Positions 10,662 through 38,439 of a stretch of DNA of 64,000 nt are shown here, piece after piece. The DNA comes from Anaerolineaceae bacterium UBA6107. Lineage in GTDB: Bacteria; Chloroflexota; Anaerolineae; Anaerolineales; Anaerolineaceae. The notes below the pieces were generated by a model, which saw only the letters and a list, made by a program, of their open reading frames with translations, did not search any database and was not told where the DNA came from. The stretch is taken from NCBI GenBank assembly GCA_002428455.1, contig DIWL01000080.1:34100-98099 (forward strand), written 5' to 3'. The translations under genes were made by a program, and so were the position numbers. Position 1 is the first letter of the stretch; the number at the start of each line of letters is the position of its first letter.

Positions 10662-12545
10662 ATGCGGGTTATCGGTACTGCCGGACATGTGGACCATGGC
10701 AAATCGACCCTGGTGCGTGCCCTGACCGGGATCGATCCTGACCGCCTGAAAGAAGAGAAAAAACGCCAGATGACGATCGACCTGGGATTCACCTGGTACG
10801 AATCTCCGGTCGCGGGTACTGTGGGCATTGTGGACGTACCTGGACATCGTGATTTCATCGAAAACATGCTGGCCGGGGTCGGCGGGATAGATGCGGTTTT
10901 ACTGGTGATCGCGGCAGATGAAGGCATCATGCCGCAAACCCGTGAGCACCTGGCGATCATTAACTTATTGGATATTAAAACCGGCCTGGTGGTACTCAGC
11001 AAAACCGACATGATCGAAGATCCGGAATGGTTTGACTTGATTGAGCTGGACATTCGCGAATACCTGGTGGGAAGCGTGTTGGAAAATGCCAGAATATTGC
11101 GTGTTTCAGCTGCAAAGGGAGAAGGATTGCCAGCGCTAAAACAGGCGATCGACGAAATTCTGGGCTCACTTGGACCGCGGGTGAATACCGGCAAGCCAAG
11201 GTTACCGGTCGATCGGGTGTTCTCCATCACCGGTTTTGGAACGGTGGTAACGGGCACCTTGGCAGGGGGAGCCTTTCGAGTCGACGACCAGATCGAAATT
11301 CTCCCCTCGCTGGAACGCGGACGAATCAGAGGCTTGCAAAGTCACAAGAAGCAGGAGACCGAAGTTTTTCCAGGCAGCCGCACGGCGATGAATCTCGGTG
11401 GTGTGGATATAACTTCAGTTAAACGCGGTGATACGATCGCTCATCCCGGCGATTTTGTTCCCACCAAGCGCATCGATGCCCGGTTGCAATTGGTTGTGGA
11501 CGCTTCAGTGGGAATCAAACACGATGATGAGGTCAAATTATTCATTGCCAGCACGGAGACAACCGCCCGCATTCGTTTGCTTAAAAAGCAAAGCCTGAAA
11601 GCCGGAGATTGGGGATGGGTGCAGTTGGAATTGGAACATCCCATCGTGGCAGAAAAGGATGATCGTTTTATCATCAGGCGCATGTCTCCAGCGCAGACGA
11701 TCGGCGGTGGTAGCGTGGTGGATCCCCATCCAAACCGGCGGCACAAGCTGAATGATGATCAGGTCATCTCACGGTTCGAATCACTTACCTCGCTGTCAAA
11801 ACTGGATAAATTACTGGTATTAATCGGTGATCATCCATTCATCACCTTAACCGAGATTCTACAGCAGGCAGAAGAAACTGATCAAACAATCGAGATGCTG
11901 AAGTCGCTTGTCAATGCCGAAAAAGTGAAGCAGATCAAAGTAGATGATGCAGATGGAGAGAGATACCTGGACGGTTTTTACTGGCAGCACGTAACGAAAA
12001 AACTGCAGGACATATTACGCAATTTTCATGCAGAAAATCCACTGAAAAATGGCATCAGCTCGGATGAATTGATCCGGCGGTTGAGAATCCCCACGCATGA
12101 ATTTGCTCCATTTTTTCAGGCCTGGAAGACGGACGGGTTGCTGATTGAGAAGGATGGATTTGTCGCCTTATCGGGTTTTGAGATCAGGTATTCTGTCAAT
12201 CAAAACAAACGATTAACAGAGTTCTGGAACGTCATTGGTCAGGATCTTTTCAATCCACCCAACGTCAAGGATGCGCGCGCGGCATTGACAGATGAAGTGT
12301 ATCAATCCCTTTTAGACCAGGGTCGATTGATCCAGCTCTCAGCGGATGTCTTCGTTCGGGTTGACGAATATAAAAAAATGCTGGAATTCGTGCGTATGGA
12401 ATGCGGCAAAGGTGAATTGTTGACACTGGCGCAGTTTCGCGATCACTTTTCCACAAGCCGCAAGATCTCACAAGCATTTCTTGAACACCTTGATCGAAAA
12501 GGGATCACCGTGCGGGATGGTGAGGGGCGAAAGCTAAAAAAATAG
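10662..12545 (+). CDS. selB: selenocysteine-specific translation elongation factor SelB
   Basis: 627 aa. G-domain motifs GHVDHGKSTL, DVPGH and SKTD. Long C-terminal winged-helix extension ending in LAQFRDHFSTSRKISQAFLEHLDRKGITVRDGEGRKL, typical of bacterial SelB domain IV. Confidence 0.9.
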   Translation: MRVIGTAGHVDHGKSTLVRALTGIDPDRLKEEKKRQMTIDLGFTWYESPVAGTVGIVDVPGHRDFIENMLAGVGGIDAVLLVIAADEGIMPQTREHLAIINLLDIKTGLVVLSKTDMIEDPEWFDLIELDIREYLVGSVLENARILRVSAAKGEGLPALKQAIDEILGSLGPRVNTGKPRLPVDRVFSITGFGTVVTGTLAGGAFRVDDQIEILPSLERGRIRGLQSHKKQETEVFPGSRTAMNLGGVDITSVKRGDTIAHPGDFVPTKRIDARLQLVVDASVGIKHDDEVKLFIASTETTARIRLLKKQSLKAGDWGWVQLELEHPIVAEKDDRFIIRRMSPAQTIGGGSVVDPHPNRRHKLNDDQVISRFESLTSLSKLDKLLVLIGDHPFITLTEILQQAEETDQTIEMLKSLVNAEKVKQIKVDDADGERYLDGFYWQHVTKKLQDILRNFHAENPLKNGISSDELIRRLRIPTHEFAPFFQAWKTDGLLIEKDGFVALSGFEIRYSVNQNKRLTEFWNVIGQDLFNPPNVKDARAALTDEVYQSLLDQGRLIQLSADVFVRVDEYKKMLEFVRMECGKGELLTLAQFRDHFSTSRKISQAFLEHLDRKGITVRDGEGRKLKK

Positions 12546-28893: not shown

Positions 28894-29370
28894 ATGATCC
28901 ATTTTTCGATTGGCGACATCGCTCCTGACTTTGAACTTCCCGACCACAAAGGGAAGGGAATTGGCTTGTCTGAAGTATTAAATAAAACCAACGCACTCCT
29001 GGTTTTCAACATCGGCTTTGCCTGACCGCATTGCACCAACCATATGGCGCAGTTGCGCCATGACTACAAAAAATTCAGGGAACTTAACACAGAAGTATTG
29101 GTGATGGTACCGAACGGACCGAGGACAATTGAAAGATACAAGACTACAAACGCTGTACCTTACCCGATTCTGAGTGACAAAGGTTCAGCTGTAGCGGGGA
29201 TGTATATGCAGGTGAAACGGTTTTTCAAGATCGGTACCCCCACGGTATTGCTGGTTGATCAGAAAGGAAGGATCATTTATGCACATTATGCAAGATCGGT
29301 GATCGAAGAACCTGATAACCAGGAACCGTTGAAAATACTTGCTGATCTGAAAGAAAAGAGTAGTAAATAA
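28894..29370 (+). CDS. peroxiredoxin-like / AhpC-TSA thioredoxin-fold protein, probable selenoprotein (in-frame TGA at 29023-29025 read as Sec; U-P-H-C motif)
   Basis: The ORF track only has 29044..29370. The same frame from ATG 28894 gives MIHFSIGDIAPDFELPDHKGKGIGLSEVLNKTNALLVFNIGFA-U-PHCTNHMAQLRHDYKKFRELNTEVLVM... The TGA occupies the first position of the CxxC redox motif. A hairpin follows and selB is in the window. Confidence 0.7.
29026..29065 (+). promoter_or_regulatory. candidate bacterial SECIS element
   Basis: Hairpin ATGGCGC-AGTT-GCGCCAT (29044-29061): 7-bp GC-rich stem with G and U in the apical loop. It starts 18 nt after the TGA. Confidence 0.5.
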
Positions 29371-29409
29371 TAATATGGTAGTTAATCTGACTGATCTTTT
29401 CCATATCTA

Positions 29410-29438
29410 TTGACTTTTACTCCCAACCTCAGTATGAT
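29410..29438 (+). promoter_or_regulatory. sigma-70 type promoter of the glnA leader
   Basis: TTGACT (29410-29415), 17-nt spacer, TATGAT (29433-29438). Confidence 0.55.
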
Positions 29439-29444
29439 AGACAC

Positions 29445-29764
29445 AATTAACAATTGATTAAAGAGAGAATCAGCGGCTGAATCTCGGTGCGCCGAGATTA
29501 CGAGGTGGAGGTTCTCCTTCGCGAGAGGGATGTTAACCCTGGGGGGATGGACAGGGGAAAATCGATCGATCAGCGGATGCCTCCGAAGCCCTGCCCGGGC
29601 TTCAATCTCCCTTCCAGACAAGTCAGAAGCCAAAACCGGTTGGCGACAACCGGCACAGAATCCTGACACGGCCAGGCAAAACGGCCTGCCTGTGCAGTTA
29701 AGCGGAAGGGAATGCTGTGAACTTATTAATAAGGCATGCCCGATCGCATGCCTTATTTCTTTTT
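29445..29764 (+). ncRNA. roughly 320-nt structured 5' leader / candidate riboswitch or attenuator RNA upstream of glnA (class unknown)
   Basis: Several strong local hairpins: 29480-29499 (8 bp, UGCG loop), 29585-29603 (7 bp), 29636-29653 (7 bp, GCGA GNRA loop), and CACGGCCAGGC..GCCUGCCUGUG. Long-range 8-bp pairing UCCCUUCC (29608-15) with GGAAGGGA (29704-11). Ends in an intrinsic terminator just before the glnA RBS. Confidence 0.5.
29728..29764 (+). terminator. intrinsic terminator at the 3' end of the glnA leader
   Basis: 12-bp perfect stem AATAAGGCATGC / GCATGCCTTATT, 6-nt loop, then TCTTTTT. The glnA RBS GGAG (29768-71) and ATG 29779 lie downstream. Confidence 0.7.
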
Positions 29765-29778
29765 AAAGGAGCGGCAAA

Positions 29779-31116
29779 ATGGACAAACAGGAATTAATGA
29801 AACGAGTTGCAGAGGACAATGTCCGGTTTATCTCCTTCCAATTCACCGACGTGACCGGAACGGTGAAGAGCCTTGATGCGCCAATTTCCCGACTGGCGGA
29901 AGCACTTGACCAGGGCATCTGGTTTGACGGGTCATCTGTGGAGGGTTTTGCGCGCATTCAGGAAAGTGATATGCGCCTGATTCCTGACATGGAAACTTAC
30001 GCTGTATTACCGTGGTCGCCGGACACCATGCGTCGTGCGCGGCTTTTCTGCGATATTTACAACCCGGATGGTACGGCTTTCCTGGGTGATCCTCGTGGGG
30101 CACTTAGGCGTGCACTGGAGAACCTTGAAAAACGCGGAATGAAATACATGGTTGGCTCGGAGCCGGAGTTCTTTCTTTTCCGTCGCAACGGTGGCACAGA
30201 CATACACCCGGTGCCGCATGATGTGGGTGGCTATTTTGATTTTTCTCCCAATGATGAGGCAGTGCGTGTCCGCACAGAATTGATGCAAGCACTGGATTCC
30301 ATGGGGTTGGAAGTGGAGGTAGGACACCACGAATGTGCACTGGGGCAGCATGAAATTGATTTTCACTTCAGCAACGCCCTGCGCTCGGCGGATAATGTGC
30401 TTACTTTAAAATACACCGTAAAGGCTATCGCTGCTCAACACGGACTGATTGCATCGTTCATGCCCAAACCGATCTTCGGGATCGCCGGCTCAGGTATGCA
30501 CTGCCATCAATCGTTGTTTGACCTGGCTGGTCACAACCTGTTTTACGCGCCTGAAGATCCCTTTAACCTCTCATCTTTGGCATATGGATTCATTGGCGGG
30601 CAGCTACAACATGCGCGGGCTTTCTCAGCGGTAACAGCCCCAACGATCAATTCTTACAAGCGGCTGGTGCCGGGTTATGAAGCCCCGGTGTATGTGGGTT
30701 GGGCACAGACAAACCGCTCAGCGTTAATTCGCATTCCACAAAAGATTGCGGGGATGGCCACAGCAGTACGCGCTGAACTGCGCTGCCCTGATCCCTCCTG
30801 CAACCCCTACCTGGCTTACCTCGTCATGTTGGCTTCTGCGCTGGATGGGATTGACAACAAGATCATCCCGCCAGAACCATTCAACAATGTGAATGTTTAC
30901 GAACTCACCAGGGAAGAACGCAAAGACATGCAAATCGTTGAGTTGCCTGCTTCATTACGCGAAGCGCTCTTCGAATTAGAAGGGGATACAGTGCTCAAAA
31001 ATGCCCTGGGAAGAGAGATTTTCGAGGCATTTATGCGGGCAAAATGGGCAGAGTGGGATGATTACCGGCTAAATGTAATGGATTGGGAATTAGCCAGGTA
31101 CCTGGAAACCAGCTGA
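29779..31116 (+). CDS. glnA: glutamine synthetase, type I
   Basis: 445 aa. FTDVTGTVKS beta-grasp N-terminus, GSEPEFFLF, HHECALGQHEIDF and NSYKRLVPGYEAP motifs. Confidence 0.95.
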   Translation: MDKQELMKRVAEDNVRFISFQFTDVTGTVKSLDAPISRLAEALDQGIWFDGSSVEGFARIQESDMRLIPDMETYAVLPWSPDTMRRARLFCDIYNPDGTAFLGDPRGALRRALENLEKRGMKYMVGSEPEFFLFRRNGGTDIHPVPHDVGGYFDFSPNDEAVRVRTELMQALDSMGLEVEVGHHECALGQHEIDFHFSNALRSADNVLTLKYTVKAIAAQHGLIASFMPKPIFGIAGSGMHCHQSLFDLAGHNLFYAPEDPFNLSSLAYGFIGGQLQHARAFSAVTAPTINSYKRLVPGYEAPVYVGWAQTNRSALIRIPQKIAGMATAVRAELRCPDPSCNPYLAYLVMLASALDGIDNKIIPPEPFNNVNVYELTREERKDMQIVELPASLREALFELEGDTVLKNALGREIFEAFMRAKWAEWDDYRLNVMDWELARYLETS

Positions 31117-31168: not shown

Positions 31169-32740
31169 CTACGGATTTACTGCATTGCTAAGACAGGCCA
31201 ACCATTGCCTGCCGATACCTTGCGGCTCTTCACCGGTTATTGCCAGCATTGGTCGGCTGAAATCCAGCGATTTCCCGTTCCGGGTTACATTCACCTGCAA
31301 AACGTTTGCATCAACAGCCTGTGCGGGCAGGTAACCCAGCCCGGCCGGATTGGCGAGAATTGCCTGGTTCATCGCGCGGGTAGATGGTACGAGGATCGCG
31401 GATGACAGGGAAGGGAGGATTTCCTCGTTAAAAAAATCTGCGAAAATATCCTGAGCATCTTCACTATCGGGGTAGACATACATTTGGATTGGCTGATCTA
31501 GAACCTTTGACGGTGGTTCTTCCTCGTAGCAATTCTGGCAATTCGTGTACAGGTCCCGCCAGGTCCTCAAGGAACCCGCAGTGATCTCCTCCAGTCGGGC
31601 GAGAGGTAGCCGAGCCAGCGGGTTTTCGGAATTTACGACAAATGTAAATGCGCTTTCACTGATCGTTACAGCATAACCCGCTAAGGATTCCGGCTCCCCC
31701 CAGCGTAGGGTCACATCGATCGTTTCCAATCCGTCAATTTTGGTATCCTCATCGGAGGTCAGCAGCGCAAGACCCGGTATGTCAGCGGCACAATCCTCAG
31801 CACTGGCTATCAGCCAATCCGTTGAGGCTGAGTGAGAGAGCTGGATCACCTCGTTGATCTCATCGCCGTTTTCAACCACAGGCGCTGCACCGGATGCAAC
31901 TGGAGTAGCGTTCATGTTTGGGCGAACATGCGATAGGATCAGCACCAGCGATCCAAGCAAAACGCAGTAAGCAGCGAAGTAAATCAACGACCTTTTGTTG
32001 AGGAAATGCAGCAGCCAATGGATCGCCAGGTATCCGACAATTGCTGCGGCTATGAAACCAACGATAAGTACGGGCAGGAAACCACCCAGGTCCGGCACAT
32101 CGAGCAGGTCCGGAATGCTGAAGATACCTGCAGCGATCATCACCGGGATGGACATTAGAAAAGCAAAACGGGCGGCCGCCGGGCGTTCAAAATTCCGCAG
32201 CATACCACCCGTGATCGTGGAACCGGAGCGGGAAATGCCCGGGAAAATCGAGAACGCCTGGAAAACGCCCGTCACCAATGCATCTCGCCAGCCCATGTCT
32301 TCCAGCTTGCGACTTTGTCTGCCCAGGAACTCGGAGCCCAACAGGAAGATGGCGGTCACAAACAAAAAGATCGCCGTGATGCGCGGGTTGTTGAAGGCTG
32401 CTTCAACTTTATCCTTTAAGAAAATACCCGCAAGACCAGCAGGGATTGTGGCAAGGACGAGATACCATCCCATGCGCGCATCAGCAGTTTCAAATGGTTT
32501 GCGGTTGATCAAGGCGAGAACGAAGCCACGGATGATCGACCATAGATCCTTCCGGAAGTATATGATCACTGCAAGCAGCGTACCGATCTGAACCAGCACA
32601 TCAAACGGGAAAACCTGGCTCTCCGGGATTTTCCAATCAAGAATGTAGGGGACCAGGACGAGATGGGCGGAAGAGGATACAGGCAGAAACTCGGTTAGCC
32701 CCTGGATGATTCCCAGAATAAGGGATTGAAGAAAACTCAT
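31169..32740 (-). CDS. uppP: undecaprenyl-diphosphate phosphatase (UppP/BacA) fused to a C-terminal extracytoplasmic PstS/PBP-like domain
   Basis: The first 275 aa or so carry MSFLQSLILGIIQGLTEFLPVSSSAHL and SRSGSTI UppP motifs. The roughly 240-aa C-terminal extension after the last TM contains LARLPLARLEEITAGSLRTWRDL, which resembles the PBP_like_2/PstS motif (L..I..G.i.nW.d). Confidence 0.85.
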   Translation of the reverse strand: MSFLQSLILGIIQGLTEFLPVSSSAHLVLVPYILDWKIPESQVFPFDVLVQIGTLLAVIIYFRKDLWSIIRGFVLALINRKPFETADARMGWYLVLATIPAGLAGIFLKDKVEAAFNNPRITAIFLFVTAIFLLGSEFLGRQSRKLEDMGWRDALVTGVFQAFSIFPGISRSGSTITGGMLRNFERPAAARFAFLMSIPVMIAAGIFSIPDLLDVPDLGGFLPVLIVGFIAAAIVGYLAIHWLLHFLNKRSLIYFAAYCVLLGSLVLILSHVRPNMNATPVASGAAPVVENGDEINEVIQLSHSASTDWLIASAEDCAADIPGLALLTSDEDTKIDGLETIDVTLRWGEPESLAGYAVTISESAFTFVVNSENPLARLPLARLEEITAGSLRTWRDLYTNCQNCYEEEPPSKVLDQPIQMYVYPDSEDAQDIFADFFNEEILPSLSSAILVPSTRAMNQAILANPAGLGYLPAQAVDANVLQVNVTRNGKSLDFSRPMLAITGEEPQGIGRQWLACLSNAVNP

Positions 32741-37539: not shown

Positions 37540-38439
37540 ATGAGACCACCCAATCGGCTAAAAGCCATTCTCGTATCACTGCTGGTGGTGGTCATTTGGT
37601 CCAGTTCCTGGGTGCTCATCAAAATTGGTTTGCGGGAGATTCCCGCGCTCACCTTTGCGGGATTGCGCTATTTCATGGCTTTCCTGGTGCTGCTTCCGTT
37701 CCTCTTACAGCGACAGGTAAAACAACAGATCAGGGAGTTCAGCCGGGGTGATTGGAAGCTGGTCATCCTATTGGGGCTAATATCGTATTTTATTGCGCAG
37801 GGTGCGCAATTCCTGAGCCTGGATTATCTGCCGGCCACCACACTCAGCCTGATGCTTAACCTGACCTCGGTGTTTGTGACTTTTTCTGCCATCTTCCTGA
37901 TCAAAGAAGTGCCAACCCCTATACAAATCATTGGGCTGGTGATCAACCTAATCGGAATTTTCATCTTTTTCTTCCCGGAAGGTTTTTCGGGTTATTCACC
38001 ATTAGGATTCATCTTTGGCATTATCTGCCTGCTGGCAAACGGGGTTGCCACCATCCTTGGCCGCAAGCTTAATTACCAGGGAAGGTTGAATCCGATCGCT
38101 GTCACACTTGTCAGCCTGGGGATCGGTTCAACACTCATGCTCGGGATCGGCTTATTATGGCAGGGCTTGCCTCCCATAAGCGTGCAAAGCCTGGTCATCC
38201 TGCTTATTCTGGCAATTGTTAATACAGCGTTTACTTTTGTAGCGTGGAATTACACACTTCAAACGCTATCGGCTATGGAGTCATCGATCATAAATGGCAT
38301 GATGCTGGTTTTCATTACCATTTTTTCCTGGATCTTCCTGGGCGAATCCCAATCACTTAAAGGAGTGATCGGTTTATTTCTCGCATTGATTGGAGCGATA
38401 ATCGTTAATATCAGAATTGAAAGGAAAGCGCGTGGCTGA
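37540..38439 (+). CDS. EamA/DMT-superfamily transporter
   Basis: 299 aa, 10 predicted TM helices arranged as two EamA-like repeats. Confidence 0.8.
   Translation: MRPPNRLKAILVSLLVVVIWSSSWVLIKIGLREIPALTFAGLRYFMAFLVLLPFLLQRQVKQQIREFSRGDWKLVILLGLISYFIAQGAQFLSLDYLPATTLSLMLNLTSVFVTFSAIFLIKEVPTPIQIIGLVINLIGIFIFFFPEGFSGYSPLGFIFGIICLLANGVATILGRKLNYQGRLNPIAVTLVSLGIGSTLMLGIGLLWQGLPPISVQSLVILLILAIVNTAFTFVAWNYTLQTLSAMESSIINGMMLVFITIFSWIFLGESQSLKGVIGLFLALIGAIIVNIRIERKARG

Follow-up and report, generated by a model that had tools for sequence, protein, structure and literature searches.

Identity of the glnA leader

The locus examined here raises the question of which RNA occupies the long non-coding leader in front of glnA in Anaerolineaceae bacterium UBA6107. 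The stretch of DNA analysed, hereafter the window, is 64,000 nt long; coordinates are window positions, on the + strand unless stated. An initial annotation had described a structured, cis-regulatory glnA leader with its own promoter and an intrinsic terminator, and had proposed a novel riboswitch of unknown class. Judged by sequence and fold, the RNA is instead a member of the glmS ribozyme family in which the peripheral domain is rearranged. Computation shows 29445–29778 to be the 5′ untranslated region (UTR) of glnA, which holds this glmS ribozyme variant followed by an intrinsic terminator. The landmarks of the locus are as follows.

29410–29438, + strand: sigma-70-type promoter, TTGACT-17-TATGAT (consensus scan, 10/12 matches)
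Near 29445, + strand: predicted transcription start, placed from the promoter
29728–29764, + strand: intrinsic terminator, stem 29728–39 / 29746–57, loop CCGAUC, tail UCUUUUU (−17.4 kcal/mol)
29767–29771, + strand: Shine-Dalgarno (SD) sequence AGGAG
29779–31116, + strand: glnA, type I glutamine synthetase (GS), 445 aa (Gln-synt_C 419 bits, Gln-synt_N 101 bits)

Consensus scans located the promoter and the 12-bp-stem terminator with its T-rich tail (stem 29728–29757) where the initial annotation had seen them, the latter just 5′ of the SD and ATG. The terminator is conserved in relatives, and the description of a cis-regulatory leader is upheld. A consensus scan for promoters between terminator and glnA found none. 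Promoters of relatives read TTGAC(A/T)-17-TAnnAT and lie 25–55 nt 5′ of the cleavage site at variable spacing. The leader folds with a minimum free energy (MFE) of −126.3 kcal/mol (z = −3.9 against dinucleotide shuffles), and the MFE structure recovers the hairpins listed in the initial annotation, the UCCCUUCC/GGAAGGGA long-range helix and the terminator. Two open reading frames (ORFs) that overlap the leader (29487–29666 and 29530–29766) were rejected as coding, as relatives have indels in the hairpin loops that are not multiples of three.

The only above-threshold Rfam match in the whole window is the glmS ribozyme, RF00234, at 29461–29677. The match covers the full model (1–167). At 37.1 bits it barely clears the curated gathering score (37.0 bits); E is 4e-5 when the whole window is searched and 3.8e-7 for a 600-nt piece. 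The Rfam alignment contains the signature segments A↓GCG at the cleavage site (marked by the arrow), ACGAGGNGGAGG, GCGGAUGCCUCC and a P4/P4.1 domain AAAC...G(N)GA...ACA, and has two large insertions relative to the model. Because the score is marginal, the assignment was tested on relatives, which score 37–46 bits on RF00234. The threshold was reached by 5 of 20 glnA-linked, 3 of 10 glmS-linked and 1 of 7 relatives linked to glutamate synthase (GOGAT). Ribozymes of the same architecture at genuine glmS genes scored 40–48 bits, a range like that of the glnA-linked copies. Since few relatives reach the threshold, the element goes unannotated.

The RF00234 matches and the conserved catalytic core thus place an RNA previously considered classless in the glmS ribozyme family. 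The Rfam scan suggested in the initial annotation, with a known-family match named as the sign against novelty, returned just such a match. The earlier by-eye comparison with glutamine, glycine, ydaO, ykkC, cobalamin and T-box consensus sequences had yielded no class; it had omitted glmS. At E ≤ 10, neither RF01739 (glutamine riboswitch) nor any other Rfam family matched within 29300–29900, except glmS and three chance-level hits. These three, STnc370, DUF805 and SMCR2_2 (E 1–5), were rejected as a class for the RNA.

Catalytic core and peripheral helices

The core pairing scheme was mapped from the Thermoanaerobacter tengcongensis ribozyme (Andreasson 2020, PMC7125110) and gives the following elements.

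29472–29473, + strand: predicted self-cleavage site between A(-1) 29472 and G1 29473 (Rfam alignment, A↓GCGCC consensus on A↓GCGGC)
29474–29584, + strand: catalytic core (Rfam alignment, covariation, T. tengcongensis pairing scheme)
C29474, G29475 and C29477–G29479 with C29571–G29575, + strand: P2.2, with G29476 bulged
29480–87 / 29492–99, + strand: P1, covaries
C29501–A29503 / U29562–G29564, + strand: P2.1
29507–11 / 29580–84, + strand: P2, covaries

Conservation was evaluated in a 33-sequence Anaerolineae alignment (MAFFT), which is weak in P4 and P5. A(-1), G1, C2 and G3 at the cleavage site are invariant, as are the core segments A↓GCG, ACGAGG, AAAAUCG and AUCAGCGGAUGCC, in sequences whose GlnA proteins are 70–95% identical. 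P1, which corresponds to the UGCG-loop hairpin noticed earlier at 29480–99, has double changes in 7 of 8 pairs, and P2, P2.1 and P2.2 can form in 98–100% of alignment cells. P2.2 needs a bulge at position 4 and a U6-A53 pair, and the 3′ strand CAGCG can accommodate each of the 5′ strands found family-wide (GCGRCUG, GCGCAUG, GCGUAUG). In vitro, substantial activity is retained by P2.2 variants whose bulge is moved inward (PMC7125110).

The covariation check that the initial annotation had called for in Chloroflexota glnA upstream regions, made here on 33 Anaerolineae, supports the fold. In a 13-helix model 89.7% of cells are paired, compared with 78.6% for column shuffles and 35–49% for slid partners. 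Compensatory double changes occur in 54 base pairs, a number reached by 0 of 500 shuffles; here and below, permutation tests are without phylogeny correction. Covariation is seen in P1, P3, P4.1, the two inserted hairpins and the terminator. The elements outside the core are:

29515–29556, + strand: two lineage-specific hairpins in the P2 loop (covariation)
29515–20 / 29525–30, + strand: first inserted hairpin, GCGA-capped (6/6 pairs compensatory, 100% of cells paired)
29537–41 / 29552–56, + strand: second inserted hairpin (5/5 pairs compensatory, 98% of cells paired)
29585–29603, + strand: P3 hairpin (5/7 pairs with double changes)
29606–29615, + strand: pyrimidine (C) strand UCUCCCUUCC, of which 29609–15 lies in the closing helix and 29606–09 pairs with the leader
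29622–28 / 29661–67, + strand: P4 (Rfam alignment; 55–69% paired in the MAFFT alignment, which is poor here)
29636–42 / 29647–53, + strand: P4.1 with GCGA loop (7/7 pairs with double changes)
29673–77 / 29688–92, + strand: extra hairpin P5, 5 bp (MFE fold; 63% of cells paired, 5/5 pairs with at least one double change)
29704–29716, + strand: G strand GGAAGGG (29704–10), which completes the closing helix on its 3′ side and shares residues with the antiterminator strand 29708–16

The peripheral domain of P3, P4 and P4.1 with its GNRA-type loop is therefore present, P4.1 having the loop GCGA, and support for P5 is only moderate. Both inserted hairpins also occur in glmS-linked members. Most hairpins of the initial annotation find their place in this model: the 7-bp hairpin at 29585–603 is P3 and the GCGA-capped hairpin at 29636–53 is P4.1, both conserved in relatives. 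The imperfect hairpin of about 10 bp proposed at 29664–91 has to be redrawn, as its 5′ part is really the 3′ strand of P4 (29661–67), and what is conserved is the 5-bp hairpin 29673–77 / 29688–92.

In the canonical glmS fold, as known from crystal structures, the P3 loop forms a pseudoknot, P3.1, with the 3′ tail. That pairing is missing here, where the P3 loop measures only 5–8 nt. In place of P3.1 there is a nested closing helix CCCUUCC/GGAAGGG (29609–15 / 29704–10) that encloses P4, P4.1 and P5; it is the 8-bp long-range pairing (29608–15 / 29704–11) pointed out in the initial annotation. The closing helix is 99% paired in the 33 sequences and invariant within the glnA clade, and family-wide it covaries (CCCUUCC/GGAAGGG, UCCUUCCC/GGGAAGGG, CCCCUUC/GAAGGGG and CCCCUCC/GGAGGGG). 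Matched strands pair at −12.3 kcal/mol vs −11.4 kcal/mol for mismatched ones, which 0 of 3000 permutations reached. A 3-bp pairing of G3-R4-C5 with GC(Y) past the closing helix, suggested by RNAalifold, was rejected, as A at position 4 occurs without U in the partner.

Genes downstream of the ribozyme

The distribution of the element was followed in genomes and metagenomes. The genome scan comprised the best 80 GlnA loci, all from Anaerolineae at 67–95% identity. Signature motifs stand at a fixed distance 5′ of glnA in 39 of these 80 closest loci, and a hidden Markov model derived from the alignment detects the ribozyme in 47 of them, with the cultured Bellilinea caldifistulae and Thermanaerothrix solaris among the carriers. 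The metagenome scan used the pattern AAAATCG-N3-6-ATCAGCGGATGCCT, a variant-specific core, and gave at least 120 matches on contigs that carry no taxonomy. Metagenome contigs from anaerobic digesters and hydrocarbon sites encode a GlnA identical to that of the window. At least 171 loci from both sources were classified by their downstream gene with Pfam, in a sample biased by the pattern. The first downstream gene is:

glnA, in at least about 95 of 171 loci
Ada-like (AraC-type helix-turn-helix (HTH)/O6-methylguanine-DNA methyltransferase) and/or EamA, then glnA where the contig reaches, in at least about 27 of 171 loci
glutamate-synthase-like (Glu_synthase, GXGXG, GATase_6), in at least about 15 of 171 loci
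glmS (GATase and 2x SIS, MCGIVG...AKSVTVE), in at least about 20 of 171 loci

In the window the gene downstream of the ribozyme is glnA, and none of the window ORFs scanned proved to be glmS; this departure from the family concerns genomic context rather than the fold. The operons in which the ribozyme is followed by an Ada-like protein (AraC HTH and O6-methylguanine-DNA methyltransferase domain), an EamA transporter and glnA (L076 1058–1957, L084 1136–1975, L087, L092, L096 and others) are an odd combination for a nitrogen regulon. At one locus (L148, 494–1168) the ribozyme precedes an electron-transfer-flavoprotein (ETF) gene, not a nitrogen-assimilation gene.

Both inserted hairpins, the conserved leader and the strands of the core recur in glmS-linked copies as in the others. 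A GlmS protein adjoining such a ribozyme has its named relatives in Anaerolineae and Chloroflexota. Together with the equal range of RF00234 scores, this marks the architecture as a trait that glmS ribozymes of the Anaerolineae lineage have in common, from which the nitrogen-linked copies seem to derive as paralogues. The main difference in the core lies at positions 4–5: the sequence is A↓GCGCAUG or A↓GCGCAAG in glmS-linked copies and mostly A↓GCGGCUG or A↓GCGACUG in nitrogen-linked ones. Some GOGAT-linked copies read GCGUAUG or GCGCAUG and resemble the glmS-linked ones.

Leader, terminator and antiterminator

The segment 5′ of the cleavage site has the following elements.

29445–29472, + strand: 5′ leader, the predicted 5′ cleavage fragment, about 28 nt
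29450–29461, + strand: conserved motif AACAAYUGAAUA, 12–23 nt 5′ of the cleavage site
29463–29468, + strand: purine tract GAGAGA

The AACAAYUGAAUA motif keeps a constant spacing to the cleavage site and not to the promoter, in glmS-linked and nitrogen-linked members alike. Duplex tests of the leader against seven regions found no pairing partner for it. The purine tract pairs with the pyrimidine strand (29465–68 with 29606–09) in a leader helix of 4 bp here and 6–9 bp in relatives. The helix covaries (GGGGAAGA/UCUUCCCC, GGGAAAGC/GCUUUCCC, GGAAAGG/CCUUUCC and GGAGAAA/UUUCUCC), and 0 of 2000 permutations reach the difference between matched and mismatched duplex energies. Its mean energy is −12 kcal/mol in glmS-linked and −6.5 kcal/mol in glnA-linked copies. 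A role of the leader as direct antiterminator was rejected, as the last 30 leader nt gave a mean z of −0.3 to +0.5 against shuffled leaders over the seven regions.

The terminator stem has double changes in 11 of 12 pairs of the 33-sequence alignment. If any hairpin with 7 bp or more and a T-rich tail is counted as terminator-like, such a hairpin follows the ribozyme, among the matches listed, in 64 of 85 glnA-linked, 7 of 7 EamA-linked, 9 of 14 GOGAT-linked and 17 of 21 Ada-linked copies, and in just 1 of 16 glmS-linked copies. Upstream of it, AAGGG and some 8 further nt form a strand that shares residues with the closing helix and complements the 5′ arm and loop of the terminator. The resulting antiterminator pairing (29708–16 / 29733–41) has −11.4 kcal/mol in the window and a family mean of −13.2 kcal/mol. 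It tracks changes of the terminator arm in relatives, the matched value being reached by 0 of 5000 permutations. The alternative pairing that the initial annotation had suspected for the segment GGAAGGGAAUGCUGUG is thereby found. The closing helix and the antiterminator share the GGG at 29708–10, and by competition for these residues a fully folded ribozyme would free the terminator (29728–57). At one locus (L029), about 100 nt 5′ of glnA (start 3001), the leader end UCUCA↓GCGGCU and a GGCAUGCC-type terminator are kept and the ribozyme body is apparently deleted.

In 11 of 19 glmS-linked copies among the matches listed, the longest stretch complementary to the pyrimidine strand overlaps the SD. 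The leader and a purine strand compete for the same C residues of the pyrimidine strand, which suggests that release of the leader by cleavage could be passed on to the SD or to the antiterminator. A clamp of the segment after GGAAGGG over the SD and spacer, suggested by the MFE structure, was rejected (matched −4.7 vs mismatched −4.4, p = 0.08). A cleavage-dependent relay at equilibrium was likewise rejected, as only about 6 of the 33 sequences, the window not among them, show a higher antiterminator probability with the leader; the relay is kept as a kinetic hypothesis only.

Proposed function and alternative explanations

The enzyme GlmS makes glucosamine-6-phosphate (GlcN6P) from glutamine and fructose-6-phosphate. 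A high GlcN6P level thus signals that glutamine suffices or that amino sugars are at hand, and repressing GS and GOGAT under such conditions would be physiologically sensible. We consider it probable that the glnA leader is a glmS-type ribozyme that represses glnA when triggered by GlcN6P, with an added terminator/antiterminator platform. GlcN6P would still be the ribozyme cofactor; an unchanged ligand is favoured by the near-identical core of glmS-linked and nitrogen-linked copies, while the class-specific bulge position could leave room for altered affinity or specificity. High GlcN6P would lead to self-cleavage of the leader and, as in the canonical system, to lower glnA expression, so that GlcN6P would feed back on glutamine supply. 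As the same ribozyme type precedes GOGAT-like genes and Ada-like/EamA/glnA operons, it appears to act on the whole GS-GOGAT pathway. The competition between closing helix and antiterminator might be tipped by loss of the leader on cleavage, by ligand-stabilised folding or by folding kinetics, all of which are candidates.

Several points weigh against repression by GlcN6P-triggered cleavage. The Rfam score exceeds the threshold by only 0.1 bit, and P2.1 and P2.2 never vary and so contribute no covariation support. Self-cleavage, the GlcN6P ligand and termination are predictions. The relocated bulge beside the active site is nearly class-specific and could alter rate or specificity, and the leader helix is just 4 bp in the window's clade. 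Equilibrium folding gives the closing helix and the terminator a probability of about 1.0 in the window, with or without the leader, and the antiterminator a probability of about 0. The proposed switch is thus not visible thermodynamically in the window, and as the leader has no effect there we treat the coupling as a hypothesis. The stable hairpin just 5′ of the SD could block a 5′-3′ exonuclease, which would speak against decay by the canonical route. None of the window ORFs scanned proved to encode RNase J, which carries little weight in a window of 64 kb. Finally, the presence of glmS-linked and glnA-linked copies together in one genome could not be established.

Among the alternatives, a changed ligand would mean that the nitrogen-linked copies (A↓GCGRCUG, bulge at position 4) sense glutamine, glutamate, glucosamine or another amine metabolite, not GlcN6P. 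This is attractive in that the controlled genes (GS, GOGAT-like) share glutamine rather than amino sugars, and positions 4–5 beside the active site separate the two classes almost completely. We find it unlikely nonetheless: the other core and pocket segments (C2, the P2.1 strands, CAGCG-GAUG) are identical in both classes, some GOGAT-linked copies have the glmS-like GCGUAUG or GCGCAUG, and a regulon built on GlcN6P, itself made from glutamine, needs no new ligand. The terminator with its overlapping antiterminator, specific to nitrogen-linked copies and laid out as a classical OFF switch, could also suggest an aptamer only, in which the ligand stabilises the closing helix and so the terminator while self-cleavage is lost or irrelevant. 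Invariant A(-1), G1, C2 and G3 speak against this, a conserved leader pairing with the pyrimidine strand is hard to explain if the site is unused, and the canonical glmS pocket is preformed and binds its ligand without refolding (PMC2258182); such a cleavage-independent riboswitch is less probable still.

It is also rather improbable that the canonical mechanism acts alone, through cleavage and 5′-end-dependent decay, with the hairpin as an uncoupled attenuator, an insulator or the 3′ end of upstream transcripts. The terminator forming at equilibrium regardless of the leader, and its retention in L029 despite the deleted ribozyme body, would fit such a role. Yet, among the matches listed, the hairpin accompanies 1 of 16 glmS-linked but most nitrogen-linked copies, the strand that shares residues with the closing helix complements the terminator arm and covaries with it, and a strong terminator acting constitutively would prevent any glnA transcript, as the scan found no promoter downstream of it. 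The riboswitch class unrelated to known families that the initial annotation had in mind draws on the Rfam score being barely at threshold and on most relatives lying below it. With a match that spans the full model with all signature core sequences, and with the same architecture upstream of genuine glmS genes, it is hardly credible.

A bolder reading, possible but doubtful, is that the Anaerolineae glmS scaffold was duplicated and became a sensor for a nitrogen-assimilation regulon (glnA, GOGAT-like, Ada-like/EamA). Cleavage would then release the leader and free the pyrimidine strand to capture the SD in glmS-linked copies or the 5′ half of the antiterminator in nitrogen-linked ones, resulting in translational shut-off or termination, possibly with a changed ligand. 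Such a mechanism is not known for any ribozyme.

Relation to known systems

The glmS ribozyme is a textbook ribozyme-riboswitch tied to a single gene. McCown, Roth and Breaker reportedly described, in RNA in 2011, glmS variants in Deinococcus-Thermus with extra core stems and an altered supporting domain, and all but two of their 463 glmS representatives are said to lie in glmS mRNAs. By this account the Deinococcus-Thermus variants likewise have extra core stems, and the Anaerolineae ones differ by their clade-wide use on nitrogen-assimilation genes. In the literature covered, we found no report that connects the glmS ribozyme to glnA, to glutamine synthetase or glutamate synthase, or to Chloroflexi/Chloroflexota or Anaerolinea. 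The RNA class itself is known; the new aspects are its target genes, its variations in structure and the addition of a terminator platform.

The variant shares with canonical glmS ribozymes (RF00234; Bacillus subtilis, T. tengcongensis) the A↓GCG site, P1, P2, the P2.1/P2.2 double pseudoknot, the conserved strands ACGAGG, UCG and GCGGAUGCC, P3, P4/P4.1 with a GNRA-type loop, and the position in the 5′ UTR. Canonical ribozymes sit before glmS, whereas the window variant precedes glnA and its relatives also GOGAT-like genes or Ada-like/EamA operons. The bulge is at position 6 in the canonical ribozyme and at position 4 in the variant, with U6-A53 replacing C5-G53. The variant further differs by the two P2-loop hairpins, by a nested closing helix and an extra hairpin instead of P3.1, by the conserved leader pairing with the pyrimidine strand, and by the added terminator/antiterminator platform. 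By published description, canonical members repress glmS by cleavage and have no expression platform (PMC2258182).

The glutamine riboswitch (glnA motif, RF01739) of cyanobacteria and marine metagenomes is likewise a leader RNA of nitrogen-assimilation genes with glutamine-related feedback, but it has an unrelated fold, binds glutamine directly and is not a ribozyme. The tandem c-di-GMP-II (cyclic di-GMP-II) riboswitch/group I ribozyme of Clostridioides difficile (Lee et al. 2010, cited in PMC5473149) also couples self-processing to the accessibility of expression signals. Its ribozyme class and ligand are different, and splicing creates a ribosome-binding site there, in contrast to the termination or SD sequestration proposed here. 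The enterobacterial GlmY/GlmZ/RapZ system (PMC7073468) likewise senses GlcN6P through RNA, but is protein-mediated, acts in trans and concerns glmS only.

A glmS scaffold placed on GS and GOGAT-like genes in a whole bacterial order implies that GlcN6P or a close relative may read out nitrogen and glutamine status. To our knowledge, no link between the supply of cell-wall precursors and the GS-GOGAT pathway has been described. The added terminator/antiterminator and the leader helix make a coupling of irreversible cleavage to termination or SD masking testable. As most members lie below the Rfam threshold, genome annotation misses them, and a dedicated model would recover them.

Other observations

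A 6S RNA gene (RF00013, 57–85 bits) stands shortly 5′ of the ribozyme in several Anaerolineae, about 180 bp away in L049 and at varying distance elsewhere. In L021, L023 and L024 a 6S RNA lies directly 5′ of glnA and there is no ribozyme at that glnA; no 6S RNA was detected in the window itself. The 6S RNA genes found with RF00013 are:

L049, 732–910: 6S RNA
L065, 2009–2187: 6S RNA
L087, 2616–2792, − strand: 6S RNA
L090, 914–1090: 6S RNA
L092, 1730–1908: 6S RNA

Convergent with glnA in the window, 31169–32740 (− strand) is a 523-aa ORF, a fusion of a BacA (undecaprenyl-diphosphatase) domain with a C-terminal periplasmic-binding-protein-like domain. The window also encodes the selenocysteine-specific elongation factor SelB (10662–12545, + strand), so the organism probably makes selenoproteins. 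An EamA-family transporter gene (37540–38439, + strand) lies 8 kb from glnA, and a member of the same Pfam family stands between ribozyme and glnA in relatives.

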